From Chiloscyllium plagiosum (taxonomy: Eukaryota), in NCBI RefSeq assembly GCF_004010195.1, contig NC_057754.1, forward strand, positions 2,605,498 through 2,669,497: a DNA stretch of 64,000 bases, read 5' to 3'. Below, one piece after another: positions 26,959-62,768 of the stretch. The translations under genes were made by a program, and so were the position numbers. Each line of letters begins with the position of its first letter. Within the stretch, counting starts at the first letter, position 1. The notes under the pieces were generated by a model. That model did not search any database. It was not told the origin of the DNA and was given only the letters and a program-made list of their open reading frames with translations.

Positions 26959-27172
26959 AGTCAGGCCACCTCCAACAGCTGCCTGAAGCTTTCAATCTCT
27001 TTGGTTAGTAATCAAGGTTACAAAATCCATGTTTATGCCACCTGTCATAAGCCACTATGTTACAAGGAATGCTTCATTTACAATTTCAGGGATTTGCAGG
27101 CATTTACTCTGACATATACTGGATTAGGTTCCAGAAGGAACTTCTTCTGATCTAGCTTTTTCAAACAAAAAC

Positions 27173-34340: not shown

Positions 34341-34428
34341 CTCACCTGATGAAGGAGCGGCACTCCGAAAGCTAGTGTGCTTCCAATTAAACCTGGTGGA
34401 CTATAACCTGGTGTTGTGTGATTTTTCA
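34341..34428 (+). mobile_element. Short PLE-type tail with an intact minimal hammerhead (34343-34377)
   Basis: cac-CTGATGA-a-ggag-cggca-ctcc-GAA-AGCT-A-gtg; same family as 53752-53966. Confidence 0.72.
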
Positions 34429-35879: not shown

Positions 35880-36440
35880 CTTCCCTTCCCTTCCCTTCCC
35901 CCCATCCCCAGTCAGAGCAGTTTCCGGTTCCGGTGCCTCAGACGATGGTGACAGGAGTAATGGAGGCGGTGGATAATCCGTGGCTGGAGCCCGAGCGGAA
36001 TCCGCCGGCATCCGCTCCATCGGGTGGTGAGTGATCGCGGTCCTGTCACTGATGGCGAGAGAACGAGCGGACCGGTCGAATGGCGCCGATATTGACCGGG
36101 GAGAAGCGACAGGGGGTGGGGGCAAAGGATGGCGGATACGAGAGATTTGTCACCGACGCCGTGGAAGGGGCGGGGGTTGTGTTGGGGGGAGGGAGAAGAT
36201 GGACGCCTGCTCGGTCGTCGGGATACAGTCGGAGGAGAAAGAGACGGAGACACTTCCTGTGTCAGCCTCCTTTCTCTCCCTTTACCATCGCCCCCGAAGT
36301 CGGGCTGGCAAAGTCGTTCGTAATGGCGGCGAGGAGCAGCCGGCGGAGCGATCCGCGCATGCGTAGAGCCGGACTCCGGTGGGTGGCGGGGGATTTGGAG
36401 GGGGAAAGCAGACCCGGATGGGAACCCGGAAGTAAAGTCA
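35880..36440 (+). promoter_or_regulatory. CpG-island promoter of the PRPF39-like gene
   Basis: The most CpG-dense non-TE region of the window. It has ETS-type TTCCGGTTCCGG (~35921) and CCGGAAGT (~36426), NRF1-type GCGCATGCG (~36354), YY1-type ATGGCGGC (~36323) and a GC box GGGGCGGGG (~36167). Confidence 0.8.
35945..36026 (+). CDS. PRPF39: PRPF39-like putative coding exon 1 (MVTGVMEAVDNPWLEPERNPPASAPSG)
   Basis: ATG inside the CpG island, strong G|gtgagt donor; 82 nt, phase 1, which matches the open frame of exon 2. Confidence 0.65.
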
Positions 36441-36699
36441 ACTACCTCCCCACCTACCCCAAGAGAGGACAGCACATGTAACTGCAATCTTTTCTTCACA
36501 ATCGAAGGGAACACGGGTATCTGCAATCTCTATAGCGAGGGGAACACAAGTAATTGCAACCCCTTCCTCTATATTGAGGGAACAGTTTTATCTGCAACCC
36601 CTTCCTCTTCCATATTGAGGGGAACATGTGTAACTGAAACCTTTTCCTCCTCCATATTGAGGGAAATAGACATAACGAATTGCACCTCAATAGAAGGGC

Positions 36700-41640: not shown

Positions 41641-41682
41641 TTTGAGTCCGTGAGCATTAACGTTTTCCTTTTTGTTTTGCAG

Positions 41683-43199
41683 ATGATGAGCAGAAACTAT
41701 TCAACAAAAGCCGCCGCGGTGGGAGTAATCCGTGCATCACGCAGAATTTGCCCACTCGGGTTCTCGGCTTGCGTGTTGATGAGACTGCCGTGGAGGAGGC
41801 CTCTGCTGACAGCCCAAGCCCCTGTGACGGGGACACTGGAGAAGAATCAGCAGCCAGTACTCCAGCACCGAGTGACGGAGACACTGGAGAGGAGCTAGCG
41901 GCAGATTCCACTGCTGACACCGGGGAGGAGTCTGCAGCTGATTCTACTGGCCCTAGTGACGGAGACTCTGGGGAAGAATCAGCAGCTGATTCCACAGGAC
42001 CCCACGACACACGAGAGGAGTCAGCCGCAGACTCCACCGGCCCGAGTGATGGTGACACTGGCGAGGAGTCCGCAGCAGACAGTCCTGCTCCCTGTAATAT
42101 CGACAGGCTACTAGACACAGCAGCTGACTCCACCGGCCCAAGTGGTGGGGCCATTAGGGAGGAGACAGCTGCTGACAGTCCTGGCCCATGTGATACAGAC
42201 AGTGTAGAGCAGGCAGCTGCAGGTAGTCCTGGTCCATGTGATGGGGACACTGTCGGCGAGACTGCTGCTGAAAGCCCTGGTCCCTGTGATACAGACACTA
42301 TGCAGCAAGGCCCTGCAGGGAGTCCTGGTCCTTGTGATACGGACCCTGTGGGGGACGCGGCTGCTGACAGTCCTGGCCCCTGTGACACAGACACCATAGA
42401 ACAAGGAGCTGCAGGTAGCCCCGGTCCCTGTGACACAGACACTGTCAGGGGGACAGCAGCAGGTAGCCCCGGTCCCTGTGACACCGACACTGGCGTGGAG
42501 ACAGCTGCAGCTAGTCCTGGCCCATGTGATACGGACACTGTTGGGGAGTCAGCAGCTGACAGTCCAGGTCCCTGTGATGGAGACACGGTAGGGGGTATGA
42601 CTGCAGATAGCCCTGGTCCCTGTGATACGGACACTGTAGGGGAGACAGCTGCTGACAGTCTCAGCCCACGTGACCGAAATGAAGTAGAGAAACTGGCTGC
42701 TGAAAGCCCACGTCCGTCTGGTGTTCAGAGCTCAGCCGGAGAGCTAGCTACAAGTCCCAACCCACCAAGTGACCAGGACACTGTGGCAGAGATGGAGATA
42801 GATGGACTGGGTATGGACAAGGAAACAGCCGAGGAATCACTGGTTGCCGAGTGCACGAACATAGACCATGGTCAGGACGCTTTGAGTGGACTGGCAGCTG
42901 ACTCTTCGAGCAGTGCGACAGCGCTGGAGGCAGTGACCCTGCTCCCCGCGAGCACCAACGGTCCAGAACACGCAATGGACAAACTGATCCATCCTGACAT
43001 TGCAGACTATATGGCGACGGAGAGCACCACTGACTGTCTGGATGCGTACGGGCAGGCCAGTGGTGATTATGGAGTCATAGAGACTGAGGACAGTGTCCCT
43101 CCGTACCCCACCGACTTTGAGAAGTATTGGAAAATAGTTGAGGACAATCCATATGATTTTACAGGATGGACATATGTCCTGCAATATGTGGAACAAGAG
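41683..43199 (+). CDS. PRPF39: PRPF39-like exon 2 (1517 nt; 16-aa repeat array then PPYPTDFEKYWKIVEDNPYDFTGWTYVLQYVEQE)
   Basis: Strong polypyrimidine acceptor tttgcag|AT, no stop in frame, GAG|gtaagg donor. Confidence 0.88.
41805..42790 (+). repeat. Coding tandem repeat, 48-nt / 16-aa unit, ~20 copies (consensus ADSPGPCDTDTVGETA)
   Basis: SPGPC recurs at exact 48-nt spacing from 42177 to 42609, flanked by more divergent units. Confidence 0.95.
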
Positions 43200-43927
43200 G
43201 TAAGGCAGTCGTTGTGTCGGTGTTACTGTGCTAGCATGCCTTCTATATCACTTGCCTTTTTTTCCCCTGGTGGTAAACTCCCAACAGCAGTTTAACTAAG
43301 AGAGCAAGTGGACAAGGGTCTCTCTGCTGTAGTTTTTTTTTCCCAACACCGGTATTTTTAGCAACACTTCTGTAATGTGATGCCTTCTGTGCAGTGAGGT
43401 GGGGCTCTAAAGTGCGAGAGTGATTTGACACCAGAACAAGTGGGGATCAGAGGCGGGTGTTTGGATTGCGACTGTCACTCAGTTCTGAAGCAGGGCCGGT
43501 GAGGGTGTGGATATAGTTTCACCTGATGTGAGTGTGTCCACCGACTTAACGTCAAACAGAGGAAAGTGAATTCAAAGCAAAGCAGTGTTGGAAAGACTTT
43601 GACAATCTCCTGCAGAGGGGAGACTGCGTGGGTCAGGGACTAGAGAATTTTGAGGTTGATGGGGCGCCTGCAGGACAGTGAAGGGATGTGACGGCAGGGA
43701 CAGGGTCTTGGCACAGTCTAGCGTCTTGGTCAGAGGCATCCAGGATGAGTTGCAGGTTGTGTGGGAAGGAAATCAGGGGGCCAGCAAGAGAAACAGTGGT
43801 GTAGAGGTAATATGGGTTGACGAAAGACAACATAATCTTCACTGGAGGTGGAAATAGGTGGTAAGGATGTGGGATGAAGGTGCTCTCTCTGAGGTTGGAG
43901 TCATCTGGAGGAGGGTGAGGGTGTTTT

Positions 43928-44252
43928 TAGATTCGATTCCTGACCGTTTGGAAACAGGCCATTTGGCCCAACAAGTCCACACTGACCCTACGGAGAGTAA
44001 TCCAACCCGACCCATTCCCCTGCCCTTTATTTATCCCGACTAATGCACCTAACACTATGGGCAATTTCCCATGGCTAATCCACTCTAACCTGCACATCTT
44101 TGGATTTGTGAGAGAAAACCGGAGCACCCAGAGGAAACCCACACAGACACGGGGATAATGTGCAAACTCCACACAGACAGTTGCCCAAACAGGAATTGAA
44201 CCCGGGTCCCTGGCTCTGGGAGGCAGTAGTGCTAACTGCTGTGTCACTGTGT
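43928..44252 (-). mobile_element. HE1-type SINE
   Basis: Reverse complement of the V-SINE pattern seen at 37314. Confidence 0.85.
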
Positions 44253-44534
44253 TACCCACAGAGGTTGAGAGGTGATATTTCTCATCCAGGCCAAGGAAAG
44301 CGATGGGACTGGATGGGTTACCAACTAATGCGATGTGTCTTGACAAGGTTCCACACAGGAGATTGCTGAATAAGATTAAGAGCCCATGATGTTAGGGGCA
44401 AGGTATTGGCATCAGTAGAGGATTGACTGACTGACAGAAGACAGGGAGTGTGGACAAAGGGGGATTTTTCAGGATGGCAGCAGGTGACTAGTGGGAATTC
44501 CACAGGAGTCCGTGTTGGAACTATGACTATTGGA

Positions 44535-44870
44535 AGGTGAGGTAGCTCAGTGGTTAGCATTGCTGCTTCCCAGCACCAGGGGCCCAGGTTCAATTCCAGC
44601 CTCAGGCGACTGTGTGGAGTTTGCACATTCTCCTCCTGTCTGCAGGGTTTCCTCTGGGTGGTCCAATTTCTCCTCTCAGTCCAAAGATGTGCAAGTTAGG
44701 TTAGTTGGCCATGCTAAAAAAAGATCCCATAGTGTCCTAGGATGTGTAGGTTAGCCATGATAAAAACCCAATGTGGGTTACAGGATGAAGATTTGGATGG
44801 GATGCTCTTCGGGGGGGGTCACTGCAGACTTGATGGGCCAAATCACCTCTTTCTGTGCTGTAGGGATTCT
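44535..44870 (+). mobile_element. HE1-type SINE nested in an old CR1 fragment
   Basis: V-SINE motifs flanked by CR1 RT-like remnants (44270-44530 and 44880-45790). Confidence 0.8.
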
Positions 44871-46727
44871 ATATTTACATTACACATTAATATTCTGGAC
44901 AGAGAAACTAAGGGCGTTGTTGTTAACTTTGGAGGTAATGCACAGAAGAGTGGAAGGATGGGTAGTGTTAGGGAAGTGGCGGCTTTGCAGAAGGACAGAC
45001 CAGGAGAGTGGGCAATGAAGTGGCAGGTGGAATACAGTGTGGGGCAAGTGTGAGATTAGGCACTTCGGTCGGAACAATAGAGATGTAGACTGTCTTCTAA
45101 ATCGGGAAAAGCTTCAGAAATCTGCAGCACCAAGGGACTTGCGAGTCCTGGTTCAGGATTCTCTTCCAGTTGACATGCAGGTTCATTTGGCAGTTAGGAA
45201 GGCAAATGCAATGTTAGTGTTCATTTTGAGAGGGCTAGAATATAAAAGCAAGGATGTACTGCTGAAGCTGTAGAAAGCTCTGGTCAGGCTGCATTTTGAA
45301 TATTATGAGCAATTTTGGGCTCCTTCTGTAAGGAAGTTTATGCCTGCCTTGGTGGGGTTCCAGACGAAGCTCACCAGAATGATCCCGGGAATGAGGGGCG
45401 TGCTTGAGGACTCTGGGTCTGGTACTTGGTGGAGTTTAGAAGGCTGAGGGGGCAATCTGATTGATTGAAACTTCCAGAACACTGAGGGGCCTGGATAGAG
45501 AGGATGTGAAAAAGTTGTTTTCTCTCGTAGGAGAGGCAGGACCCAAAGGCACAGCCTCACAGTAAAGGGTCAACCTTTATGAGCAAATGAGGAGGGAGGG
45601 TGTCAAAGTCACAGCTGCAGAATGCTGTGGAGGCCGAGTCATTGAGTGTCTTAGGACTGAGGCCTAACAGTTCTCGATTTGCGAGAGGGTCAATAGTTAA
45701 CAGGAGATGGCAGGAGCAAAGGTTTGAGAAACAGATCAGCCATGATCACATGGCGGAGCAGACTCAATGGCCAACTTCCGCTTCTATATTTTAGGCTCCT
45801 TGATCAAATGCACAATTGTGCCAGGGCAGAGCTGTATGGCTTCGTGGTAGGGGAGTGTCTGTCAATGGGTGTGAATCTGTAATAGGTTGGAGAAAAGGAA
45901 ACACCATTGGCCGAGGGGAGAGAGCATTCAGTTGGTGGGTTGGTAGAGGAATGGGAGAGGATGCTTCCCCTGGCAGGGGTGAGGAAATGGACAGGCCTCT
46001 GTGCTGTCCTTTCAGCGAGGTTCCTTAATTAGTGAGTGATCAGCAGTGGGAGGGTGGAATACTATGGGACAGTCACTAGAGTTGTTTGTAGAGTTCAAGC
46101 CAATATCAAGGACTTGACCAAATGATCTAAGCTGATGCCCCCAGGGCCAGCACTAGGGGAGTGCTGCACTGTCGGAGCTGCTGTTTCCTAATGAGACTTT
46201 AAACTCTGGCTATATCAGGTGGGTGTAGAAAAGTCCCAACTGTATTTTTGAAGAAAATTAGAGTGTTTTCCACGGGTAGCCTGGCCAACTTTCTCACCTG
46301 GCCAACGTTCCTAACTGCTCGCTCTATGTTTATCTGGGGCCCACCTGTCCTCCTCCATCCCTTCAGGACAGGAATATTCCAAGACAAATGGGATTTGTGA
46401 TCTCCATCCCCACCTTCAGTCACTGAGCCTGTCCCCACAGGAAAATGGCTGGGGCACCAAGGTCAGGTGACTTTCTCTTCTGCAGTTCCACTGTCATTGG
46501 CTCGTGTAGCTTCCCCAGAGAGTAGGTGCTCCCTCACTCCCTTGCCTGCTTCAGTTGCTGAGGCTATAGACGTGAATCCCAGCCGAGCAGGCAGGCAGAG
46601 AGCAGTGTATCCCAGGACTCCTGGCTTAGCAGGTTTGGCAATGTCTCTGACTGGAACGTAAGGTCGTGTGTCTCGGGGCGTGGTGCAGGACTGGGCTGCT
46701 CTCTTGTTCATTCTGGTCTTCTTTCAG

Positions 46728-46853
46728 AATCACATCTGGGCCGTGCGGAAGGCATTCGATGCGTTCTTCGCCCGCTATCCCTATTGTTATGGCTACTGGA
46801 AGAAATATGCCGACATAGAGAAGCGCCTGGGGTTCACCAAAGAGGCAGAGGAG
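46728..46853 (+). CDS. PRPF39: PRPF39-like exon 3 (NHIWAVRKAFDAFFARYPYCYGYWKKYADIEK...)
   Basis: ttcag|AAT...GAG|gtgagg; 126 nt. Confidence 0.96.
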
Positions 46854-47399
46854 GTGAGGGGACTGACGTGGGGAGCTTCGGGGGCTGCTGTTTCTTTTGG
46901 GTTATTTAAGCTGATAAATGTTGCTCGCATTCTACCGAGAGGAGATCCAGCTGACAGTTTCCCTGGAATTTGCCTATCTGTCAGATTACAGCTCGAGTCA
47001 TCTGCTTGGATGTGATGACAGCTGCCAACTTGTGTCTGCAAAAAGTTAAATCATTGCCCATGCACATCTTGTGAAACAGATGTCCTTTTTGCTTGTCAGC
47101 ATAGAGTAAACAGTAGAGATTGAGAGTGTGTATGAAAACTGTTTATCGTCCCTTCTCTCGCTCACCCAGAACACCAGTGTCTGCTCTCTCCACTCTGCGA
47201 TGGTTTCTGCCTGAACAGCTCTCAGTAGCAGAGCACCCCCGAGATCCAGCAATTCACCGTGTGAATAATCTCTTCCTGATCCTGCTCCTTCCTCTGTCTT
47301 CTCTTTACGTTAATGACTGTATTACTGCCACCTTCCCAAGTTAATAGAAATCCGTGCAGGATGGTGGAGCTTCTTCACCGTTGGCACAAGCTCTGCTCA

Positions 47400-47885
47400 T
47401 TAAACGTTCACAGGACAGGGGCAGCATAGCGTTAGATACAGAATAATTTTTTGTCTACTGAAAGTAAAAGCTGCTTCCATTCCTTTTTAAAGTGAAAGTA
47501 GAATTTTCTCTACACTGTTCCCATTAAAAAACCCCAGGACAGGGACAGCACAGCATTAGATACAGAACAGAGATACTGTTTCAATCAAACATCCACAGGA
47601 CAGTTAATACACAAGGTTTAATACAGATTAATGCTCCCTCTAGTATTTTAAACAGAAAGTAAAGCTTTCTTGCAACTGTGTCCCCATCAAACTCTCCAAG
47701 AACAGGTACAGCTCTCTGTACCCTTTTAAAGTGTAAGAAAAGCTCTCAACACTGTCCCCATTAAAGTCCCAGGTCAGGTACAGGATGTGTTAGATACAGA
47801 GTAAAGCTCCCTTGTCGTTGTTCCCATCAAACACACATAGGACAGGGACAGCGTGGGGTTATTTACAGAATAAAGCTCCTTTCAT
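47400..47885 (+). repeat. Diverged array of the same ~58-bp minisatellite
   Basis: Recurrent ttagatacaga.taaagct...cccatcaaac...ggacagggacagc. Confidence 0.75.
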
Positions 47886-47977
47886 GCTTCACTGTGCCTA
47901 GAGCCACGTTCTCTGAAACATACCATAATTCTCCCGATACATTCCGATAGTTGCAGCTTGCTGTTTTTCTGCTGCAG

Positions 47978-48096
47978 GTTTACCAGCGAGGACTCCAGTC
48001 CATCCCACTTAGTGTCGATCTTTGGGTTCACTACATCACATTCCTACAGGAGATCCTCGATGCTACCAATCCTGAAACTCCTGCTAAACTCCGGAG
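47978..48096 (+). CDS. PRPF39: PRPF39-like exon 4 (VYQRGLQSIPLSVDLWVHYITFL...)
   Basis: tgcag|GTT...AG|gtaagc; 119 nt. Confidence 0.96.
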
Positions 48097-49466
48097 GTAA
48101 GCCCATGTCATCTGACTTTGAAGTGGACAGGGATGGGGGGAGTCTGTGCCTGGTGCCCAAACCTGAGTTGTTGTTTGTTTCTGAGCAAGCTGGATTATGA
48201 CTGAACTGGTGTTATTTCAACCCCTTGTTTTTCAGCAAGGCTTCACGGAGATCCCAGGTTGTTGCAGCACACAGAATTGCAGAGGCAGGACAGGCATGTA
48301 AGATCACAGAATCTTTTGGGTGTGGGAAATTCCACCCCGGCTTAACAAACGGAAAATAAGGGATGGCAGCATTTGGTCAAAGAAGCAACAGCAAACTGCG
48401 GGCAGTCCTGTTTGGCAGCAGGTGGCTACGATCTGGCAGGCACTGTTTCCACGTCCAGGAGTGTCCCTTCTTCTTGGTTATCCTATTTGATTCACTGCCA
48501 TTCACTACCATCTTAATGCGCAGCAGTCGTACTCTGAGCCTACGCGCCAACATTTGTGCTCCCCAAGGATTTGAAACTTGTCATCATGGTGAAAGTCTCT
48601 TTGTCCAACAATAGTTGTGCCATCTGCCGCGACCTTCATTCAGCTGGCCTCTCTTTCCACGGGCTGTGGTACCCTTCTCCAGGTCGACCAGCAGCACTCC
48701 CCATGTCTTGAGGAGCTGATAGGTTTGAGCTGCTGGCTGTGGACATAGCTGACGTTCCAACGAGGTGCTGAGAAAATGCAGCTTGCTCACAGGTGAAGAT
48801 CAGGAGTATTCTCTGGCTGTCGTTGGCACCATCCTAAACTGATGAACCTGTCTGTGCTGATTGAGCGAGCTTTGCAGCGACCAGTTGGTTGCTGTGTCGC
48901 CACCTTTCCAGGGGCTGCATAAATGAAGGAAATAAGACTTGAATTCCTAGTCAATGGAAGGACGTTTTGAAGTGAAGACCCTGTTGTAATGGAGGCACTG
49001 CAACCAGTTGGCACACAGCAAGCTCTTGCAGGAGAAATGTTGGCCTCGGGACACCGGGTAGAATCCTCCCTCTCCGTGCATGGACACAACCACGCAGACT
49101 TACATACATACACACAGACCCATGCACACGCATGCGCACATACTCTCATGCACACTGACCCATGCACGTGCGCGTGTGCGCACACACGCAGGCACCAGCT
49201 GCTCTTCTACCAGTGCCTGTGGGAAGCCTTGCACCCAACCACATGGGACCTCAGTTTAATGTCTCATCTGAAAGGATACAGTAGAGTGATGTCCCTGAGC
49301 AACAGTGGAAACAGTCATTGAGATGGTGGGTAGGGAGTTCTTGATGTAATGCTCCTAATCAAGATTCATATTTATTGGCCTCTGTAGCCTGCACTGCTTT
49401 GGACTGTTGATGGATCCACTTGGGCTGTTTGTTTGTTTGTTTATTTATTTATGTATTTATTTGCAG

Positions 49467-49634
49467 TGTGTTTGAAATGGCGTTGGCTGCTGCTGGCACA
49501 GACTTCCGTTCTGACCGGCTCTGGGATCTATATGTGAACTGGGAGAAGGAGCAGGGTCAGCTGAAGGCTGTAACTGCCATTTATGACCGGGTGCTATCAA
49601 TACCGACGCAATTGTACAGTCACCACTTTGAGAA
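49467..49634 (+). CDS. PRPF39: PRPF39-like exon 5 (VFEMALAAAGTDFRSDRLW...HHFEK)
   Basis: tgcag|T...GAA|gtaagt; 168 nt. Confidence 0.96.
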
Positions 49635-51285
49635 GTAAGTAAAGGAAGGGCTCTTGCACGATTAATGCGCAGTGTTGTAAATTATGCTCACCGTTGATCC
49701 GGTAACCCGACTGGTGTCATAAAAATATATCCAGCACAGAAACCAGGAAACTTCCGTGTTTCTGCTTCACACAGGCCGCCTCCTACTCCTCCCCTCTGTC
49801 TCCCTTGCATTTATTTTTCCCTTCTATGTTTATCCAGCTTTCTCCCTAAATACATCAACATCTTTCACCTCAACCACTCCCTGTCTGTGTGTGTTCCACA
49901 GACTCTCTGCTCTGAACTTTCTCCTTAGTTGGAGATGATTGGGGGCCTGTTGGCTTTGCCAGCGATGCCCGTGTTGCATAAATGCATTTTTCTTTTTTGG
50001 TTAAAGAGAGGATGCTCCCTGGATTGGCTGTGTCAGTTTGGGAGCCAGTGACCGACAGGAAAAGACCCTCTTCACCATCCACCCCATCCCAAGCAATCGC
50101 CATGTTCTGTGCACCACGCTTGAACTCTTCCCGTCACCTGGTAGTGGAGATTTCCTGGGAGAGATGTGAAACCAAGTTTAAAATCCAGAGGCAATCAGAA
50201 GTGGACAATTCCCCTCTGACCCACTGCCTGGTTTACAACTGAAACTAGACCGGACGTTGCCATTAACCCTGAATTGTTTGTAAGTGTGTAATTGTGTACA
50301 AGTTGATTTGCAACCCTGCTGATAACTGGTCCAGTTCACTTGTGTAGCAGCAATGCATCCTCTCCCTGGCTCCAAATCAAACGAGCAGTTGCAAACGAGA
50401 TGAGGCCAGAAGTTGTTTGTCCAGAGTTGCTCACATCGGCTGGGGCAGCAAGGTATTTGTTAAAGATCTGCCGTTGCAGCAGCAAATTAATGTCATGTCT
50501 CCCATGGAGACCCAGACTGCTTCAGGACATCTGGTTCCATCCCCCAAAGGATATTGGTAATTGGTTCACGCTACAGGAACAGTAGGCTCTGCCAAGACAG
50601 GGGAAAATGCTAGCCACACATCCCCGGCCTGATGCCTGCTGGGAGGGGTCCTGAGTGAGAGTCCATGCCTTTGGGAGTGAGCAGTGACTTTTTTTTCTTA
50701 ATCCTGTGCTAACGTAGTGTTTTAGCACAGTAAAGCATCCTGAGGCTTGATCCCAAGAATAGTTATCAAACAAATCAACATTTGACATGCGAGATATTGG
50801 GGACGGATGACTTCAGACAAGGTCAAAGAGGTCAGTGTTTGGGACTGTCATGAGTGGAAGGAAGAGGCACGGAGATTTAGGAAATTCCAGAGTTTAGGGG
50901 TTGCGAGCAGCTGAAGGCGCAGCCACTAATAGAGCTGTTCAAACCAAGATGTTGGGAGGGTGTTCGCAAGACTGGAATTAAAGGAGTGCAGAGTTCTCTG
51001 GGTGGTGGTGGTGGTAGGCTGTGGAGGAATTGCAGAGACAGGGAGAGATGAGGGCATAACTGAGCATTTTAGCGTTGAAGTGTTGTCGGACCAGGAGCTC
51101 TTGTGGGTCGGTTCATGTAAGGAGCAACAATAAATGGGACTCTGTGCAAGTTAGGATGCCAGGCAGCAGGAGGTTGAAGGTGGAGGGGAACTGTCCCTCC
51201 TGCCTGTCGTCCAGACTTCACGCAGCGATGGTTTTACCCAAACCAGAGGCTGTCTCTAACTCCAGGTCTCTTGACTGTCATGCAG

Positions 51286-51457
51286 GTTTAAGGACCATGT
51301 GCAGAGCTACTCACCGAAGGACATCCTGTCCACTGACGAGTTCCTCAGACTGAGGTCAGAGGTCGTAAGCAACCTGGCGGCAGCTGAAACGGAGTGCGAC
51401 GAGGGGCCCCCTGGAGATGACCCTCCGCCCGGTGTGGGGACCACCGATGAGGAGAAG
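51286..51457 (+). CDS. PRPF39: PRPF39-like exon 6 (FKDHVQSYSPKDILSTDEFLRLR...PPGDDPPPG...EEK)
   Basis: tgcag|G...AAG|gtgacc; 172 nt. Confidence 0.92.
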
Positions 51458-52042
51458 GTGACCCGTTCAAATTTGTTTTTCCTCACTGGAGGTTTATTTA
51501 CGTGACTTGGCCCGTTTCCCAACCTCGTGAAGCTGGTATGTCAGTCCTTTGTGATCAAACCTGAGGTGGTGGGCAGAATGAGCTGATGGTGATTGCAGAT
51601 CTGCTGCTGGTAGTTGTTGCTGGAATGCGTGGTGATGGCAGGATCATAGCTGACAGTTGACAAGGAGCCCAAGGGTGGGGAGTTGTCACTTGGACGATGG
51701 GTTGACGCTCTCTGGATCGTAGTACAGCAAGACTTGTCCTCCTTGAGACAGTGTTGCTCCGTAGGTTTAAAGGCTTGCAGCAGGCCCCAGGAATGTTAGC
51801 AGCTCCTGCTCATCCTGACCCAGGGGCAGTGCTGTGATCATTAACTTTCCTCACTGTGTGTTTGACTCAGTTCCCCCCCCTCACCTTCCTGTGGGCTGCT
51901 GCTTTAGCAGAAACCAGACCGACCATCCTTGGTGTTGCATGGGTAGGGGGGAGGGTTCTTTCTCAGGTTTATTTACAGGTCTGCCATTTTGCAGCCCTAA
52001 TTTCACTGACCAGTTTCCTATCACTATAACCTTCCCTCCCAG

Positions 52043-52150
52043 GCTGACACCGAGCTGGAGAAGATCCGAGCCCACCTGGCAGCCACTCGGCATGAGATGT
52101 ACCTGCTGAATGAGGAGGAAGTTAGCAAGAGGTGGAATTTCGAGGAGGCG
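52043..52150 (+). CDS. PRPF39: PRPF39-like exon 7 (ADTELEKIR...NEEEVSKRWNFEEA)
   Basis: cccag|GCT...GCG|gtaagg; 108 nt. Confidence 0.95.
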
Positions 52151-52564
52151 GTAAGGATGCACCCACTGCCCGGTGTGTAACTTGCTCACCCTAGCTCAGA
52201 TTGACAGTGCTCTGTGCTTCCAGGGTGGGCAACCGTTAGGCAACCTGCCCACTCTGTTCATTTTGGAGAGTCAACTCACTGCCTGCCCACCCGTCTGTCT
52301 CTCTCTCTGTCCCTGCCCGCCTGTCTGTCTCTGCCTGCCCGCCCGCCCGTCTCTGCTTGCCCGCCTCTCTGTCTCTCTGCCCCCCTTTGAAGGGCAGAGC
52401 CTAAGAATTGTTCAGAAAATATGTGAACCCTGAAGAATCTACATAAATTACATTCGGTTGGAATAGTTTAAGGAAGGGGGGATGTGCACGAGGCTAGAAT
52501 TGGGTGAGTGTGGAGTTTTCTGTTCCCTCATCTGCTGCTGGTTATTCTGTCACCCTGCCCTCAG

Positions 52565-52729
52565 ATTAAGCGGCCATACTTCCACGTCAAGCCCCTCGAG
52601 AGAGTGCAGCTGAAAAACTGGAAGGACTACCTGGATTTTGAGATTGCCAGTGGCACTAATGAGCGGGTTCTGGTATTGTTCGAGCGCTGTATGATCGCCT
52701 GTGCTCTGTACGAGGACTTCTGGATTAAG
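52565..52729 (+). CDS. PRPF39: PRPF39-like exon 8 ([12 protein letters not shown]...[11 protein letters not shown])
   Basis: ctcag|ATT...AAG|gtgaag; 165 nt. Confidence 0.97.
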
Positions 52730-53158
52730 GTGAAGCCCCCTTTTCTCAGATGCTTGCACCCGGGGGGGTCACCCCTCCCCGGCTGTTCTGCAGATCTTAC
52801 CCGATCGGCAGCTTCTTGTGTTTTTTGTTCCTTTTTGAAGTTTTGTGTTTGTTGGTTTATTTTTTTTGTTTTTGCAAGCGTTCCAACAAAAAAAAATTTC
52901 ACATTTTACTTTGATGATCTGACTTCTAACATAATCTTTTAATTCCATTGCTGTTTTATCTGCACGTGTTGCTTCAAACTAAAGAAGTTAAGGGATTGCT
53001 GAAGAAATGTATAAGCGTGTTATCACTGTGAGTGCCCCCTCCAGTTCTCAATAAGCTGTACCATGATGCCTTTTTATTTTTTAACACCGGCGCCCAGTGC
53101 GTCGGAGCAGTTGATCTTGTTTGCCTTCATCCCCTTTCCGACTTCCTTCTGCCTGCAG

Positions 53159-53285
53159 TATGCCAAATACCTGGAGAACCACAGCGTCGAGGGAGTCCGC
53201 AACGTTTTCCAGAGGGCCTGCATGGTCCACCTGCCCAAGAAGCCCACCCTGCACCTGCTGTGGGCCGCCTTTGAGGAACAGCAAG
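53159..53285 (+). CDS. PRPF39: PRPF39-like exon 9 (YAKYLENHSVEGVR...LWAAFEEQQ)
   Basis: tgcag|TAT...CAAG|gtgagg; 127 nt. Confidence 0.97.
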
Positions 53286-53319
53286 GTGAGGACCCACCCG
53301 GTCACTCCCCGGTGGCGGC

Positions 53320-53742
53320 GTTGTGAGGAGAGGCTGCGTAGGCTGGGGCTGTTTCCCAGGACCATCGGAGGTGACCTCTATAGAGGTTTATAAAATCGTG
53401 AGGTTGGGGGGGGGGCCACAAATAGGATGATTAGCCAAAGTCTTTTCCCAGGGTCGGGAGAGTCCATAACTAGAGGGTGTAGGTTTAAGGTGAGGGGTAG
53501 GGGAAAGGGACCTAGGGGGCAGCTTACTCACCAAAATGTATGGAATGAGCTGCCAGAGGAAGTGGTGGAGGCTGGTTCAATGATAGTATTTAAAAGGCAT
53601 CTAGGTGGGTATGTGAATAGGAAGGGTGAAGAGGGATATGGGCCGGGTGCTGGCAAATGGGACTAGATTGATTTTAGAATATCTGGTCGGCATGGACGAG
53701 TTGGACCGAAGGGTCTGTTTCTGTGCTGTACATCTCTGACTC
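53320..53742 (+). mobile_element. CR1/HER1-type LINE 3' fragment
   Basis: WNELPEEVVEAG plus tail. Confidence 0.85.
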
Positions 53743-53751
53743 TTAAAAATG

Positions 53752-53966
53752 TCGATAGTAGTCATGATTTGGACATGCCAGTGTTGGACTGGGGTGTACG
53801 TAGTTACAAATCACACAACACCGGATTATAGTCCAACAGGTTTAATTGGAAGCACTAGCTTTTGGAACGCCGCTCCGACCACCTGATGAAGGAGCAGCGC
53901 TTCGAAAGCCAGTGCTTCCAATTAAACCTGTTGGACTATAACCTGGTGTTGTGTGATTTGTAACTT
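53752..53966. mobile_element. Palindromic hammerhead-containing non-autonomous element with 15-bp TSD
   Basis: TSD tgactcttaaaaatg (53737-53751 / 53967-53981); ~75-bp inverted arms; CTGATGA...GAAA at 53883-53907. Confidence 0.85.
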
Positions 53967-56448
53967 TGACTCTTAAAAATGCCTCCCCCTCCCCCTCCTA
54001 TTACATATTGGCAGAGACAGAAGCCTGTCTAAATACTCTGGTTCAGATTTAAACAGCTATTAATCTGTGGTTGAGTTTAGTTAGTCTCTGAGGGTAGCCA
54101 TGAAATTTTCCTCCAATGTTATAAAATCCTGCTTCCTTTACTGATCTCCTCTGAGGAAAGAAATCTGCTGCCGGTAACTGGTCTGGCCTACCTGTGACTC
54201 CTGACTCTCGGAAATATGGTCAACTCTTAACCACCATCTGAAATGGCTGAGCAAATAGCTCCGTTCAAGGGGCAATTAGGGATGGGTGGCAAATACTTGC
54301 TCTGTCAACAATGTCAAGGTCGCACAACAGAGTAAGAAGGTGACTGAGAAATAGCTACTGTACACAGTGTGCACTGTAAATCTACAGAAGTCATTAAAGA
54401 TAGTGGAATGAGAGAGCTGGTATTTACACACACAGTATATCAGGCTTGTTAATATAAGCATCGCATACAACAGCAGGGAGGTTATATTGAGCTTATACAA
54501 GACTGTTTGGACCAAGGCTAGAGTGGTGTGCCACATCGTATCAGATGAACGTTAACACCTTGGAGAGAGTATGGAAGAGGTTTGAGGGTAGATTGGGAAA
54601 TTGGGACTGTTGTCTTTAGGGAGGAGGTTTGATAGAAGTCTGGACAGTGGGCTGGAGGTGAGTAAAATGGTCAGAAACCATGGGGCACAGTTCAAAAGTG
54701 TTGTGCAAAAGAAGTACCTATGGTGAAGAAAGTGTCTGTTTTTCACGCAGTGAGTGGGTAGGGTTTGGAAGTGTAGAGGAGGCAGGTTAAGCTGAGCCAT
54801 TCAAGAGGGCTTTGAATGGTTATTACAGTGGGCAGGGTTGGTGCGGCTGAAGCCAAGAGTTTGGCTCTAAGTTCAAACGTGCAGAAACCTAGTATGGTCA
54901 CCATGGGCTGAATGGCTACCCTGTGCCTCGGTTCAGTGAAATCTTACTGGGGCAATTATTTCATCCATTCATCATGTATATCTGGAGAGGATACAAGCCT
55001 AACCGATGCAATCTGTCTTCATAATTATGTCATTTGACCATTTTGCCCCCAATGGATGTCACCCCCGCCAGTTTACACTGCCACAGCTGTCTCTCGGGTA
55101 AGGAATTCCAAAGATTCGGAAGCCTCTAAGTGAAGCAATTCTTCCTCAAACTGACAGCTCCTCATTCTGAGCCCCCTCCTATTTGTAGACCCTTCAGTCG
55201 GGGAGAAGGAGGAAGATGCACCCTCTCCATCCTCCCTCCTGTCGAACATACTTCATAATCTGATGTAATCATCTCACTCTGATTTGAATATAAGCTCATT
55301 GTACTCAACCTGTCCTGGTAAGAAGGCCTGTTCAGGGAGCTATATTAATCACCGTTTCAGTGTTGGTATGTGTGGGGGAGGGGGGGGGGGGGGGACAGTC
55401 ATGGGATTGAACTTTGAGAGCCAACCAGACAAAGTGAGGGTAGTTAATCAAGCTAATGGAGCTGAACTGGCAGGCACTCCAGAATGGAGACAGGAACCAT
55501 AAATGCAGAGGCATTACACAGGATGTGAGTTCAGCAAAAAAAAAGATTAACACGAGGCCATTGTATCCCTTTTAATAACAGTTCAGTCCGTTTGCTTCAG
55601 TGCACACTATGTCTAAACAGTTCCACCTCGATTTGTTACACAGTTTCGGGTCAGGCCGTGCTGTTGCAAAGTCCTTTCTGAGGCAACCCACAATCTGTGA
55701 CGGTTGACCGCTGGGCTAGAAACGTGTGAATCACACAAAATGAAAGTCTCAACCTGCTGCAGACAAGACGAGAGAACCCCATCGAGGATTCTCGAGACCA
55801 GTGGCCCTTTTTTTTTATCACGGGAGTTAATGGCCTGCCTGACCTTGGGGGAGCTTGTCAACCAGGCTCGCTGTTTGCAAGGTGTTTGGTATTGTCCCTG
55901 AGTTGGCTGAAGCAACTGAGGGGCAGGCGCTTTGAGCGGGATTCACCTGTTCAGAACTGCAGCTCTCACCAAGGGATGGGTACGAGGCCAGGCTAGCAAC
56001 CAGTGAGCAGCTTCCGTGGGTGTCAGCTGGGTGAGCAGTCAAGGCCCAAGGTGGCTGTCACAGAGAGCTCTCAACATGTCAAGCTCAGACCCAGCTTCTT
56101 ATGTTTAACGGGGAAGGTGTATAGAAGTCCGAGCGGGAAGGGGTGACCGGTCTGTTATGCGGGGAGTACAAGGAGGGTGAAGGTGGTACGAGTGAGGATT
56201 GTGGGGGGGGGGGGGGGGGGGTGGTGTGAGATTTAAAATGCGAGGAGAAGGAAGTTTACAAAGTCTCTCTGATACTCCACAATACTGACTTGGTGTACAG
56301 CTGGAGAAAGGGATTGATGGGCTTGACGATGGGGAGGCCCCTCAGAAATGTGACACGCTTCTGCCTCTGCTGGAAGCTGGTTTGTGCATCAGCTGTATCT
56401 TGCCATTTTCCTTCAGCCCTCCCTGACTGATACGGAATTCTGCCCTAG

Positions 56449-56717
56449 GTGACCTGGAGGAAGCCCGCCGAATCCTCAAGTCCTTCCAGATGGTAGTGCC
56501 AGGGCTGGCCATGGTGCTGCTGCGGCGCGTGAGCCTGGAGCGTCGCTGCGGGCACCTGGACCAGGCAGAAGAACTCCTGCGTGAGGCCATTGAACAGCAC
56601 AGGGGCACCACCCTGGCCTCCTTCTTCTCCATCAAGCTAGCCCGGCAACTCCTGAAAGTCCAGAAGAACATGGCAAAGGCCCGGAAGGTGCTGCTGGAGG
56701 CTATCGAGGGAGACAAG
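56449..56717 (+). CDS. PRPF39: PRPF39-like exon 10 (GDLEEARRIL...LRRVSLERR...LLEAIEGDK)
   Basis: cctag|GT...AAG|gtgagg; 269 nt. Confidence 0.96.
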
Positions 56718-57574
56718 GTGAGGGAGATGGGGAGAGGTTGGTTAGGATAGATGCTGTGTTCCAAAGTGATGAATCCTATCATGGTACATCACAAAATGAG
56801 GCTCTTCGCCCCATCGTACCTGTGCTAGCTCTCTGCATGACCTATTCAATTAGTCTCGCTCCCCTGTTGCTTCCCCTAGATTCTCAAGTTTATTCCCTTC
56901 CAACCATCTATTGAATTCCCTTTTGAAAGCTGCTGTCTTTATTACTTCAGTTTGAGGAATGTTCTTACTTGGTGCTCTGTCAGGATGTCACAGGGATGCT
57001 TCCTCCTTTTTGGAAGAACCCAAATCTAGCCGTTACTCTTGGAAAAATAAGGAGATCCCCCATTTAAAGCGAGAGACAGTGGCATGTGAGTCTTTGGAGC
57101 TCCTATTCAAAAGGTGGGGGAAGCAGAGAGCTTCGTTAATTGTGGCAGTACTCATGGATGTTCCAGGTTGATAAAAGGCACTATACAAATGCAAGTTTTT
57201 CTTCTGTGGTAATTGCGTTGCACAGTATCATGCCCATCACCTACATGTGGCCCAAGTGGGCAGCTTCGTTAGCTTGCCGAAGGAGATACAGAAGAAAACC
57301 TGAAGCTGATTTAATTGAAGCTGGTTAGGTAGAAGTCAGCAGAGTTCCTCCAGATCATGAGAGGGATTTCGACAGGGGAACTGAGCAAAGTTGGGCCCCG
57401 GTTGAAGATTAACGACTGAAGAACTGGTGGAGGGCGTGTAGTCAGCAGAAACAGGTTTTTATTTTACCCAGCCGGTGGTGAGTAGCTGAAATTCTGAGAG
57501 CTGTGTTTGTGGCCAGCCCCACTGCTGCTTTGAGCACTGCACGTTGATGGATAACATTGGAACACTTGGGGGAA

Positions 57575-57870
57575 GCAGTGGTGTCACAATAATAACACTG
57601 GCTAGTAATTCAGGGCCCCGGGCTGATGTTCTGGCTGGAGATTTGAGTTTGAGTCCCACCAGAGAGATGGTGAAATTTGAATCCAGCAAAACAAAAGGCT
57701 AACCTAATGGTGACTGTGAAAACATTGTCAATTCTTGGAAGAACCCATCTGGTTCACTGATGTCCTCTCGGGAAGGAAGTCTGAAGTCCTTGTCTGGTTT
57801 AACCTATCGGTGACTCCAAACCCACGGTGATGTGGACAATAAATGCTGGCCTAGCTAGTGACCCCCACAT
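57575..57870 (+). mobile_element. DeuSINE/SacSINE-like element
   Basis: tRNA-like head and 3' caataaatgctggcctagc tail shared with many fragments in the window. Confidence 0.6.
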
Positions 57871-59009
57871 CCAACCAACAAATCTACTGCGAAATTCCTG
57901 TATCAGCCAAGTGCCGTTTACAAATAATTACAACCGCTCCCACTGTTACAGGACATCCAGTTAACAGGAATGACCCTGTTACTCCTGATAAGATCTGTGA
58001 AGGGAAATGTTGTTCAGCATCTATCCCGAGGACTGTTTATGCAATAACAAGGGCTTCCACTGAGTATTTAAAACACTAACATTGAAATGCTGACTCTGTG
58101 GGTTTCAGACCATCGACTGTGTTTATTTCCTGACACGTTGCACATTAAAGTGGAACCGTGTTTTCCCGTCCGGAACACTTGTCAAAGCTGTCTTCCTGTT
58201 CCGGTCACTTGATGCTGTTGTGATTGGGTTGCAGGTATACATTGCGGGTGGATTCCCATGCCCGTCTTTTTAAGATTTAGATTTTACTGTCATGTTTACT
58301 CCTGTTCAAGAGTACAGTGAAAAGTATATAATGTCGCCACACCTGGTGCCATCTTAGTACAAAGGCGCCTGGGTACCAGAACACTTGGGTACAAAGTATT
58401 AAAAGAAACAAAGTTTGAATAATTAAGCATTACCTTCATAAAGTAAGTAGAAAAATAAAGAAATAAGATAATAGATAGCAATTGTAATGTAGTGTCCCAT
58501 CTCCTGTACAGGAGAAATACTCCAATTCCCAAACTGGAATGATAGGCAAAGCTGCATTTAGAGGGGTTTTTATTTTTGCAAATTGGATGAAGGTATACTG
58601 GGCCTAGCTCGATGGGTTGAGTTGCCGCACGCTAAACTCTGAAGCTCCTACACCAGCTGGCACTGGCGGCTAGAATCCATCTCTCCCAGTTCCAGGTTAA
58701 GGAGAGCAAAGTATCCCTGGGGATCAAATTCTGGTGGTTTCCACCAAAGTGTCAGCTCCTTGGGAGCTGGCTGTCCAGTTGGGACAGTCTGCCTGTGCTA
58801 TTGTTAAGTGCATTTTCTCCATGCAGGCTGGTGTGAGGTGGTAGCCACCTTGGCAGTGTATTCTAGCACATTTTCGGCCTGTGTGTGTGGTGAAGGAGGG
58901 GGAATGCCTTGTATGTTCCTTTGTGAGTTGGGGGGGGGGGGGGGGGGGGGAGAGATGATAGTTTTGCAGTAGCTGCCTCCCTCTGATGCAGAGCCTTTGG
59001 CCTCAGCAG

Positions 59010-59194
59010 GACAACCCCAAGCTGTACCTCAACCTGTTGGAGCTGGAGTTCAGCAGTGACATCCGCGTGAATGAGGGCAACATCTTGGGCTGCTTCGAGC
59101 AAGTGCTGGTCAGCTCTCTCCCCCTCGAAACCAAAATTGTCTTCTCCCAGCGGAGAGTCGAATTCCTGGAGGATTTTGGCTGCAACGTACAGAG
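59010..59194 (+). CDS. PRPF39: PRPF39-like exon 11 (DNPKLYLNLLELEF...FSQRRVEFLEDFGCNVQ)
   Basis: cagcag|GAC (tandem acceptor; alternative start 59007) ...AG|gtgggt; 185 nt. Confidence 0.94.
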
Positions 59195-60120
59195 GTGGGT
59201 GTCACCGTTTGGTATCGGCGGTGGTGGGGGGGCACGAAATCTCTGTGCTGTCGGATCTGTAAGAAAAGCACATGCTGCGCCTCCTGCACTCCGGAATATC
59301 TCAAATTCCGAAAGCGTAGGAGAATATTTCCACTCAGAATGGGGAGACCAGAAGGGTGGTGGGGGGCATCAATATCAGACAGTCAAAGGCCAGTGGAGGG
59401 GGATAAAGAGGCTGGGAGCAGGACTCAAGCAGGATGCAGATAGCCCTATCTGTGCTGGATGCTTGATTGTGGATCAGTCATTGCCCACACTGACAATTGA
59501 GTGTCTCACTGCCAGCCCACACACTCTGTCTCAGGCTGATTGGAATATTTAATCCCCCTCACCAGTACTCCAAACCACTCTCCCTTCCATAAAGGCTCCC
59601 CTACCCTTCTTTTTGACTGGCGTACAGAGGAACTTCGATTATCCAAAGGAGATCTTGAAGTCCCGATAGAAACATCACATCAAAGACGTGTTTCCAACAC
59701 TGATCGCGTCTTTTGTTTATCGTGATTAAACAGGCACCGTCTCCAAATGACTGACCCTCCACTCTCTCGCTGTGTCTCCCCCAGCCCACACACACACACA
59801 TTCCCTGCAGTTCTGCAGAGGGGTGTAACCTAAGCCCCGCCCCCTTCCCCAGATAATCTCTCTCAAGTTGTATTGTACAGGGCAGAGTGGAACCTGTCAA
59901 AAAGTTGCAGTAAAAAGCGGTGTGTGTGCACGTGCGCACGCTACTTGGAGACTGACCCCACACAGGCAGCTGCAGCAGTCTTGTTGGTGTACAGTCCAAC
60001 TGCCCAGGAGAGGGGCGGGGTGGCCGCATGGCCAGGGGGGGAGCAATGTTGAATGGGGTTGGGAAAGGCAGGTAGGGGAATGGGGTTGGGGGGCGGGGGC
60101 TCATGTGTCTCATCACCTCA

Positions 60121-60472
60121 ATTAGATTAGATTAGATTACTTACAGTGTGGAAACAGGCCCTTCGGCCCAACAAGTCCACACCGCCCCGCCGAAGCGCAA
60201 CCCACCCATACCCCTACATTTACCCCTTACCTAACACTACGGGCAATTTAGCATGGCCAATGTTTGCACGTTCTCCCCGTGTCTGCGTGGGTTTCCTCCG
60301 GGTGCTCCAGTTTCCTCCCACAGTCCAAAGATGTGCAGGCTAGGTGAATTGGCCATGCTAAATTGCCCATAGTGTTAGGTATGGGGTAAATGTAGGGGTA
60401 TGGGTGGGTTGCGCTTCGGCGGGTCGGTGTGGACTTGTTAGGCTGAAGGGCCTGTTTCCACACTGTAATGTA
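60121..60472. mobile_element. Two HE1 SINE 3' halves in inverted orientation
   Basis: 60121-60261 is the reverse complement of the SINE 3' part; 60262-60472 is a 5'-truncated + copy. Confidence 0.85.
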
Positions 60473-61024
60473 AAGCCCCAGAGGAAAGGCATTTAATTGA
60501 TTAACCAAATAATCGATTATGCAAACGAAATAGTGCCCGTCCACCTCATTCGGATATTCGAGGTGCCCCTGTCTTAATATGACTGGTCGTGACTGTGTTC
60601 CTTAACATTGAGTGCATTGGGTCTTTCGAATGTCAAGGGCGTCCCATTCAGACTGGATTCTTTATTGTGAGAGGGCACTCACAGTGGTTCCCTACCTGTC
60701 TACCATACCAGGACCCCCTTGAATATCCGCCTGGCTGCACTGTCAGAAGTCAGTCCTTTTTCCGCTCTGCAGGCTGGTGATGCCTGCTACCTTCGGCCAA
60801 GATTAGAAAGAGCTGGGCTGTTAACAACTGGGGATCTGAGGTTTGAGACTATTAAACAACTATTTCAGCTTCTCTCTCGGAAGCGGTGAGTGATTTAGCC
60901 CCTTCACTAGCTACAGACTACAACCTGAGTGTGTCTGCTGTATCCCATTGTCAGAGCCTGATTTAGTGTCCCATGTGTTTGTTCTCCTCCTCCCCATCTC
61001 CTGTCCCCCCTCCCCCAACTACAG

Positions 61025-61099
61025 TTTGTTACACGCTTATGATGAGCATCAGAAACTCCTCAAGCAGAACTCCAGTAAGAAGCGAGCAGCTGAGAACGG
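61025..61099 (+). CDS. PRPF39: PRPF39-like exon 12 (LLHAYDEHQKLLKQNSSKKRAAENG)
   Basis: tacag|T...GG|gtgagt; 75 nt. Confidence 0.94.
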
Positions 61100-61808
61100 G
61101 TGAGTGCTAGCTGATTGTTTGTTTGATTTCGCTGCCTTTGCAGAGTGTCACTCGCTGCTCCTGGCCTACTGTCTGTTTGCAATGTGAGGGAGCAGTCAGC
61201 CTTTCAAGAGTTGGCAGAGAGTGCCCTGATCCCATTGAGTTGAGCATGAAACAACAGTGCACACTTTTGGTGTTCCTGAAGGCATCGCGTCCCTGCCCCT
61301 TGCAGACAACAGCGTATTTACCATATTCTGCTAAATCTGCGTTGATCAAATTGTCTCCTTTTAATATTGGTTGAGGTATCACATGCAGAATCAGTCCTCC
61401 GGACTCCAGTCTCTTGACTGAGCCCTGGTCCTCCCAGCAGTGCAGCGCCCCTTTGGGGGGGGCTCTCTGGTCCTCTCAGTGCGGTGCCCCTCAGGGAGGG
61501 GCCCCTGGTTCTTCCAGCAACGCCCCCCCCCCCCCCCCCCCAGGGCCCAGTGTAAGTCTTGCTGGACCTGGATTTTGTGCAGAAGGCCCCTCCTCTGTGT
61601 ATAAGAGGTAAACCTCTCCAGTTGTACACAATGGGATGCAGGTTAGTGGGGAATGGGGGAGTGGGCTGGGGGTGTGGGTTCACGAGGGCACAAAGTGGCC
61701 AAGATCTCCAAGCCCATGAGTCATCCCTTCACGGACAGGAGTCTGCCACGGACCCTCTCCCCGAGAACACTGATGTGTTTGTTGATGATGTAACCCTTGG
61801 CTCTGCAG

Positions 61809-61962
61809 CACTGAGGAACTCGAGGAGAAGCGAGCGAGGATGGACGATGCCTCCACAATCAGCACAGCAAGCACTGCCACGACCAGCACCAGCTCCACTG
61901 CCCTCATGAGTGGCGATGTGACCAGCAGTCAGGCAGCATACAACTACAGCGCGTGGTATCAG
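61809..61962 (+). CDS. PRPF39: PRPF39-like exon 13 (TEELEEKRARMDD...QAAYNYSAWYQ)
   Basis: tgcag|C...CAG|gtacag; 154 nt. Confidence 0.93.
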
Positions 61963-62705
61963 GTACAGCTCTATCTGTCCACCCCCTCACCCCCCAGAAT
62001 TTCCCTGTCCCCTCAACACACTCCCCCCCCCCCCCCTCTCTTTCAGGCAGCAAACAGGAGCCTTTCTGGTCAGCCTGAATATGTCTGTGGACAATGGTCT
62101 CTCCTCCTGTTAGTGCACAGTCCCACCCCTCACTCCACAATGTAGCCTGCTCTCTACCTGCCCACCTCTCCCAGGGTAAACTCTGTTTTGTTGACATCTC
62201 TGAAAGCCGTGTCCCCCTGAGAGGAACAGGGCAGCAGATGCAGAGGAGCACCACCCCCTGCCAATTCCCCGCTGAGCCTCTCACCATCCCCACTTGGGGA
62301 TACAACGGCTGCTCCTTCAGTGTCGCTGGGTCATAATTCTGGAGTGCCGTAGTCGGTGTAGGTGCACTCACAGACTGGTGTAGCTGTTCAAGAAGGCAGC
62401 TCACTACCACCTTCTCAGGGGGCAGTTAGGGACGGGCAGTAATTACTGGGCCCAGCCAGTGATGCACTCATCCCAGGAGCGAGTGAGGAACAAATCTGTG
62501 AAAACAGCAGCAACAGTTTGTCCAATGGGGCAAAGTGTGCAGCAGCGCTCAGATTCTTCACCCCGTGTCAGCTGGAGTCTCACCGAAAGCTCAAGCCCTC
62601 TGGCTCAGTCGAGAGCATTTAGTTGCAAATGAAGGCTGGGCTGGGTTTTCCACGGTAGACGGAGGCTTGCACCAATTTTCCGATTGTCTTTTTCTCTCGT
62701 TGCAG

Positions 62706-62768
62706 CCTTATGGATCGTATGGATATCAGAACCCGTGGAACTACAGTCAGTATTACCCACACAGCTGA
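62706..62768 (+). CDS. PRPF39: PRPF39-like last exon (PYGSYGYQNPWNYSQYYPHS*)
   Basis: tgcag|CCT; QNPWNY..YY motif; TGA. Confidence 0.94.
   Translation, partial: PYGSYGYQNPWNYSQYYPHS

Follow-up and report, generated by a model that had tools for sequence, protein, structure and literature searches.

A coding tandem repeat under purifying selection in the acidic N-terminal arm of a second PRPF39 paralogue of sharks

Introduction

The best described relative of the protein considered here is mammalian PRPF39. Its dimerisation, its binding of U1C and RNA and its promotion of weak 5' splice sites are known. As presented in one study, metazoan PRPF39 is a single-gene homodimer that replaces yeast Prp39/Prp42, and the basic groove of yeast Prp42 is missing in mouse PRPF39 (PMC6582350). 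The supplement gives one gene id each for chicken, Xenopus, zebrafish and turtle and contains none of the terms 'shark', 'paralog' and '39-like' (PMC6582350). In another study, the NTD/CTD interface of human PRPF39 was the site at which GC-rich RNA is bound, and the protein also binds U1C (PMC9808567). Two PRP39-family genes per genome, as found here in jawed vertebrates, are described for yeast (Prp39/Prp42) and Arabidopsis (PRP39a/PRP39b). The jawed-vertebrate duplication differs from these pairs in that it is independent and lies at the base of jawed vertebrates.

For the long acidic arm, the closest parallel is provided by D/E-rich autoinhibitory regions of the HMGB1 type. Acidic disordered regions can autoinhibit nucleic-acid-binding domains (PMC10250230). 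The shark arm shares with them a large negative charge and a predicted disordered arm on an RNA-binding domain. In contrast to them, it has no long D/E runs and distributes its charge along a strict 16-aa repeat, the Ser-Pro-Gly-Pro-Cys core of which is fixed. A full-text literature search, carried out largely outside subscription journals, found neither the array nor a vertebrate PRPF39 paralogue described. The protein sequence itself is already present in RefSeq. New is a shark-wide, selected repeat on an overlooked PRPF39 paralogue.

Gene model and protein product

The window, the whole stretch of 64,000 nt of Chiloscyllium plagiosum DNA that was analysed, contains a PRPF39-like gene with 14 exons on the plus strand. 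All introns are GT-AG. Exon 1 (35945..36026) carries the ATG and ends in a phase-1 GT donor; it is in frame with exon 2 and matches aa 1-26 of the shark model P0001 with 96% identity in tblastn. Exon 2 (41683..43199) has the 1517 nt proposed in the sequence-only reading, is bordered by AG and GT, lies within a single 544-codon open frame and encodes the complete acidic N-terminal arm as well as the first helices of the HAT region. It is followed by exons 3-6 (46728-46853, 47978-48096, 49467-49634, 51286-51457), exons 7-10 (52043-52150, 52565-52729, 53159-53285, 56449-56717) and exons 11-14 (59010-59194, 61025-61099, 61809-61962 and 62706-62768, the last with the stop codon). The joined product comprises 1109 aa without internal stop and is identical to P0123 (XP_043538553.1), the RefSeq 'PRPF39-like' model of C. 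plagiosum. Shark RefSeq models of this protein (P0123, P0001, P0004 and others) carry automatic names such as '39-like', 'mucin-17-like' or 'uncharacterized'. A possible alternative first exon (36323..36515, plus strand) matches the N-terminus of P0121. Its frame changes partway in the window, so that it may be non-coding here.

The HAT-repeat body and C-terminal tail are encoded by 43116..62768. Three exon pieces match the N-terminal HAT domain PF23240 above the cut-off, and the C-terminal HAT domain PF23241 is matched with 98 bits. HAT-NTD, linker and HAT-CTD of mouse PRPF39 (PDB 6G70) align with aa 499-1107 (E 1e-257), and AlphaFold predicts a helical model with high pLDDT for this body. 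When positions are mapped via an inferred +5 offset on the 6G70 chain, R458, R464, E576 and D577 are kept in the window protein and Y536 is Phe; both proteins have a Tyr-rich C-terminal tail. The difference lies at the other end: The N-terminus comprises about 80 aa in the mammalian protein and 505 aa with a repeat array in the window paralogue.

A second PRPF39 paralogue in jawed vertebrates

A search with the HAT region yielded 1232 matches, of which the best 120 were listed. A maximum likelihood tree of 34 rows, rooted on three invertebrates with long outgroup branches, contains two jawed-vertebrate clades. Clade A (16 rows, support 100/100) comprises mammals together with short proteins of sharks, rays, chimaera, fishes, amphibians and reptiles. 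Clade B (13 rows, 95/91) unites the window gene with proteins from rays, gar, coelacanth, amphibians, turtle, lizard and kiwi. The position of the cyclostome rows at the tree base is not settled. Among 171 listed proteins, all mammalian (12/12) and teleost (20/20) rows are closer to clade A. By its place in this tree, the window gene is a second jawed-vertebrate PRPF39 paralogue and not the orthologue of human PRPF39. The earlier assumption of an arm added to the human PRPF39 orthologue had to be abandoned, as the gene groups in clade B and a short canonical PRPF39 exists in sharks besides it (database proteins P0074, P0052 and P0062, N-terminus 127-142 aa). For the chimaera Callorhinchus, the matches listed include the canonical copy P0042 and no paralogue.

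Both paralogues occur in six genera: Chiloscyllium, Heterodontus, Latimeria, Lepisosteus, Pleurodeles and Rhinatrema. The residues corresponding to the dimer contacts, R887, R893, E1005 and D1006, do not vary in any of the 52 rows, and position 965 is Phe in 32 rows, as in the window protein, and Tyr in the other 20. In the mouse protein, the dimer is broken by mutating residues that are kept in clade B (PMC6582350). As both ancient copies, with identical dimer residues, are present in six genera, the use of a heterodimer by vertebrates is directly testable. Most clade B members, e.g. those of gar, coelacanth and reptiles, have short N-termini of about 80-130 aa.

The 48-nt repeat array in exon 2

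Tandem Repeats Finder detects a period of 48 nt with 10.5 copies at 42159-42660. The complete array has 20 unit starts between 41802 and 42719, two of them belonging to shortened units of 12 and 14 aa. The earlier count of about 20 units was thus accurate; the array as such stood, and its length, given there as about 330 aa, is 306 aa (aa 68-373). Eight early units (41802..42167, plus strand) include the two shortened ones and are mostly of the AADSTGPSDGDTGEES type with Ser instead of Cys. They represent the second subtype (STGPSD) that had been noticed upstream of the Cys units. Ten consecutive 48-nt units follow at 42168..42647, with the pattern x-A-x-S-P-G-P-C-D-[TG]-D-[T]-x-x-x-x, a net charge of -31, 10 Ser-Pro sites and 10 Cys. 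Two degenerate final units (42648..42719) and a non-repetitive acidic linker (42720..43115) complete the arm on the same strand.

SPGPCD is encoded by 10 of 10 consecutive units, from the first Ser at 42177 to the last Asp ending at 42626. The heavy synonymous variation ascribed to this core is present in the Ser, Pro and Gly codons quoted for it, but the Cys codon is TGT in all ten units and therefore shows none. The other positions of the unit had been called variable. This is valid for eight columns; the Ala two residues before Ser and the Asp two residues after PCD are also invariant, so that eight and not six of the 16 columns are fixed.

Selection on the repeat

In the ten Cys units, minority bases at codon positions 1, 2 and 3 number 17, 18 and 51 (chi-square p 2e-6). 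The pN/pS ratio is 0.31 (column bootstrap 0.14-0.50). The dN/dS comparison between units that the sequence-only reading had suggested gives 0.18 after JC correction, and dN is zero for the SPGPCD core. With 18 full-length units, pN/pS is 0.46, and with four Ser-type units it is 0.26. When neutral evolution was simulated along duplication trees, allowing for transition and CpG bias, mean pN/pS was 0.88-0.96 and the minimum 0.40 (n=2400), i.e. the observed value is below every simulated one. Eight invariant columns were reached in 0 of 3 x 4000 star simulations.

Comparison with other species points in the same direction. Relative to Rhincodon and Stegostoma, 10-12 of 160 residues (6-7.5%) are changed in the ten orthologous units, 25-33 of 118 (21-28%) in the adjacent linker, which is the fastest-evolving part compared, and 12-16 of 533 (2-3%) in the HAT body. 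Across three relatives, none of the 14 changed positions in orthologous units coincides with one of the eight invariant columns (p about 6e-5); Hemiscyllium was excluded from this count because it has an extra unit. The proposal that the array is selected at the protein level is sustained by the pN/pS ratio, the codon-position bias and these 14 positions. Taken together, these comparisons give good support to purifying selection on the coding array, with A-x-S-P-G-P-C-D-x-D as the selected core. Likewise, they are good evidence that the array frame has been translated over long periods. A 355-aa antisense ORF at 41657-42724 is taken as a by-product, since variation is concentrated at third positions of the plus frame.

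These data also bear on the idea that the array is mostly untranslated, with a non-coding first exon spliced into exon 2 and a start at an internal Met. Every full-length protein found is a genome-derived model, and among the database records examined, including 51 matches to proteins <609 aa, no transcript-derived shark protein spans the array. Three database isoforms of relatives (P0007, P0011, P0013) begin at internal Mets inside or past the arm, exon 2 of the window has in-frame Mets at 42300, 42597 and 42792, and the alternative first exon is out of frame here. The codon-position bias and the pN/pS ratio, however, indicate long-term translation in frame, exon 1 is conserved and in frame, and exon 2 contains no internal AG preceded by >=11 pyrimidines in 15 nt. 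We therefore consider a mostly untranslated array highly improbable.

The array in sharks, rays and other vertebrates

The array is carried by 13 of 13 shark paralogue models (27 proteins examined), whereas PGPCD is absent in 8 of 8 batoid (ray and skate) models; all shark and batoid sequences compared for the array are genome-derived. Conservation in other chondrichthyans, for which the sequence-only reading had proposed a search, was thus found in sharks and, as far as PGPCD is concerned, in none of these batoids. The number of PGPCD copies ranges from 3 in Mustelus to 24 in Scyliorhinus, and the arms measure 500-827 aa. The flanks differ by lineage round a common core (EEAAAD, EGSAAD, EEPPSG), and Pristiophorus has 18-aa units. 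Among Cys-type units of eight equally weighted shark proteins, retention is 0.91 for P, 0.86 for G, 0.75 for S and 0.89 for the downstream D. A profile of the shark unit scores 27 bits with the sawfish and 10-12 bits with two skates; shuffles of the caecilian arm reach at most 7.5 bits. According to these scores, the repeat unit is probably older than the shark-ray split and decayed afterwards in rays.

Outside the chondrichthyans, a phmmer search with the ten units against 1.8 billion representatives gave 26 matches, one of which is the Heterodontus orthologue. Among the 18 of 25 other matches inspected, PGPCD is present only in P0228, and the remainder are unrelated tandem repeats. P0228 is an ORF in an ENA assembly, a singleton with six PGPCD-containing units of 14 aa and with T-V-E-E-like ends; its resemblance is probably chance convergence. 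A look-alike search in the ESM Atlas had a best score of 0.86 and provided no usable match. The Cornifin/SPRR family (PF02389) was rejected, as its 23.6 bits are below the Pfam gathering score of 34.8.

Other family members have long arms of their own. Salamander and caecilian paralogues (P0099, P0069, P0082, P0086, P0087) possess N-termini of 870-1130 aa. Proteins of the P0087 type (1735 aa) are found whole on Logan contigs of ~6 kb, as expected of a spliced transcript. The salamander arms lack a clear period. In the caecilian P0099, the same paralogue has at the same position a long S/T- and acid-rich tandem array with a period of 18 aa, which differs from the shark array in having neither the Cys core nor a match to the shark profile and is thus attributed to an independent expansion. 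A common origin of the shark and caecilian repeats was rejected on the same ground. Within clade A, the eel proteins P0102 and P0103 have acidic N-termini of 413-437 aa with an 11-aa period. Since shark, amphibian and eel arms are unrelated, long arms arose several times. The repeated rise of unrelated long acidic or S/T-rich arms suggests that some bulk property is useful.

This diversity would fit a weakly constrained spacer or solubility tail, in which frame, disorder and acidity are kept, the exact sequence matters little and repeat turnover spreads whatever unit arose. Variable copy number and arm length in sharks, the missing motif in batoids, the short arms of gar, coelacanth and reptiles, and the unrelated amphibian and eel sequences, including the caecilian repeat, all agree with such a tail. 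Homogenisation, however, has no bias to synonymous change, yet pN/pS is 0.31, and the array is 3-4x more conserved than the adjoining, equally acidic linker. We regard a mere spacer as unlikely.

Properties of the arm and proposed mechanism

AlphaFold, run with a 52-row alignment, gives almost the whole of aa 1-495 a pLDDT <50 and predicts no secondary structure there. The array has a net charge of -62 and the whole N-terminus of -91, and the description of an acidic disordered arm was thus upheld, its disorder as a prediction. The array contains 15 Ser-Pro sites, 25 S/T-x-x-D/E sites, 12 Cys and no aromatic residues; its longest D/E run comprises two residues. Ser-Pro is the consensus of proline-directed kinases and S/T-x-x-D/E that of CK2.

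Our preferred reading, to which we assign a probability of roughly 0.35, is that the arm acts as an acidic brake on HAT-domain binding to RNA and the U1 snRNP and is tuned by multisite phosphorylation. Proline-directed kinases would act on the fixed Ser-Pro sites and CK2 on the S/T-x-x-D/E sites. The phosphates added would make the net charge of -62 still more negative, and the charged arm would compete with RNA for basic surfaces of the HAT dimer. The copy number of the units would set the strength of the brake, which is consistent with the 3-24 PGPCD units across sharks. In favour of a brake are the selection on the units, the predicted disorder and negative charge of the arm, the RNA binding of human PRPF39, the autoinhibition by acidic disordered regions in other proteins and the repeated rise of unrelated long arms. 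Several observations speak against it. Bulk charge by itself leaves the fixed uncharged A, G, P and C unexplained. The HAT body is not strongly basic but near neutral to slightly acidic (NTD -5, CTD +1), mouse PRPF39 has no Prp42-like basic groove (PMC6582350), the array is devoid of long D/E runs, and only 7 of the 25 CK2-type sites fall in the ten Cys units. Furthermore, outside sharks most members of the paralogue, those of rays included, have no such array.

Alternatively, the array might be a multivalent docking strip, in which a specific reader would bind each A-x-S-P-G-P-C-D-x-D unit and so be recruited to the spliceosome. A phospho-Ser-Pro binder or an adaptor of the ubiquitin system are examples of candidate readers. 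Eight invariant, mostly uncharged and strongly selected columns would suit such a strip, as would a core that was kept when the shark orders homogenised their units separately and the flanks diverged. No known motif is an exact fit. The Keap1 ETGE-type consensus is E-[TSN]-G-E. The early units resemble it with DGD[TS]GE, in which D-[TS]-G-E occurs four times at 41802-42071. DGD[TS]GE is found in 10 of 10 shark proteins tested and in the sawfish, and units of sawfish and sawshark contain a true ETGE; shuffles, however, yield at least one Keap1-like match in 6-20% of trials. Most Keap1 binders listed in one survey have E (or S) where the units have D (PMC11816071). The PGPCD repeats of the unrelated ORF P0228 could count in favour of docking, but this singleton may be due to chance among 1.8 billion proteins. 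Docking is a possible, albeit doubtful, alternative to the brake.

The repeated Cys could also serve as a redox or metal sensor, with oxidation, glutathionylation or Zn/Cu binding altering the compaction of the arm. The Cys is present in every one of the ten units, unchanged in orthologous units and flanked each time by Asp, and shark arms contain 10-35 Cys vs 0-3 in most short N-termini. On the other hand, the upstream subtype and 6 Mustelus units have Ser in place of this Cys, and such replacement in many units weakens a Cys-specific role. The Cys residues are single, 16 apart and amount to 4% of the array, which has one His; their codon is without synonymous variation, and rays lack the motif. 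A Cys sensor thus appears improbable. Metallothionein-like metal binders have dense, clustered Cys such as CxC or CxxC. With 12 single Cys in 306 aa, 16 apart and not clustered, the array was rejected as a binder of this kind.

On a wider scale, one may speculate that the second PRPF39 of non-mammalian jawed vertebrates pairs with the canonical one to form a yeast-like asymmetric Prp39/Prp42 dimer, that the Ser-Pro/Cys repeat, tunable by copy number, couples U1 splice-site choice to the kinase or redox state in sharks, and that amphibians acquired arms of their own in that position. This combined scenario is quite unlikely. Independently of it, the shark array is a clear-cut example from nature of a short motif amplified 3- to 24-fold under selection in the disordered arm of a splicing factor, beside related lineages that lost or re-invented the arm. 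For now, it is an evolutionary curiosity within an already annotated protein, the function of which we infer.

Neighbouring features in the window

Directly upstream of the PRPF39-like gene, the gene for the E3 ligase SYVN1/HRD1 is located at 3900-29257 on the plus strand (PF25563 matches). Human SYVN1 lies at 11q13 and PRPF39 at 14q21, in regions presumably related by vertebrate genome duplications. In the teleost model P0120, a clade A PRPF39 is fused to a ubiquitin-like/S30 (FAU-like) C-terminus, which suggests that PRPF39 and a FAU-like gene are neighbours in that teleost. The window contains no FAU-like gene. A chicken PRPF39 intron hosts a snoRNA (PMC2653536). A snoRNA search of 43200-63000 with E up to 1 found none, and no Rfam family reached its gathering score in the window. 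In the region of the last SYVN1 intron, weak reverse transcriptase and GIY-YIG matches at 27156-28649 (plus strand) indicate a Penelope-like element. A short element at 53834-53933 has near-perfect inverted ends and a weak miRNA-hairpin score. As a similar sequence is located near 34330-34420, it is probably a small mobile element.
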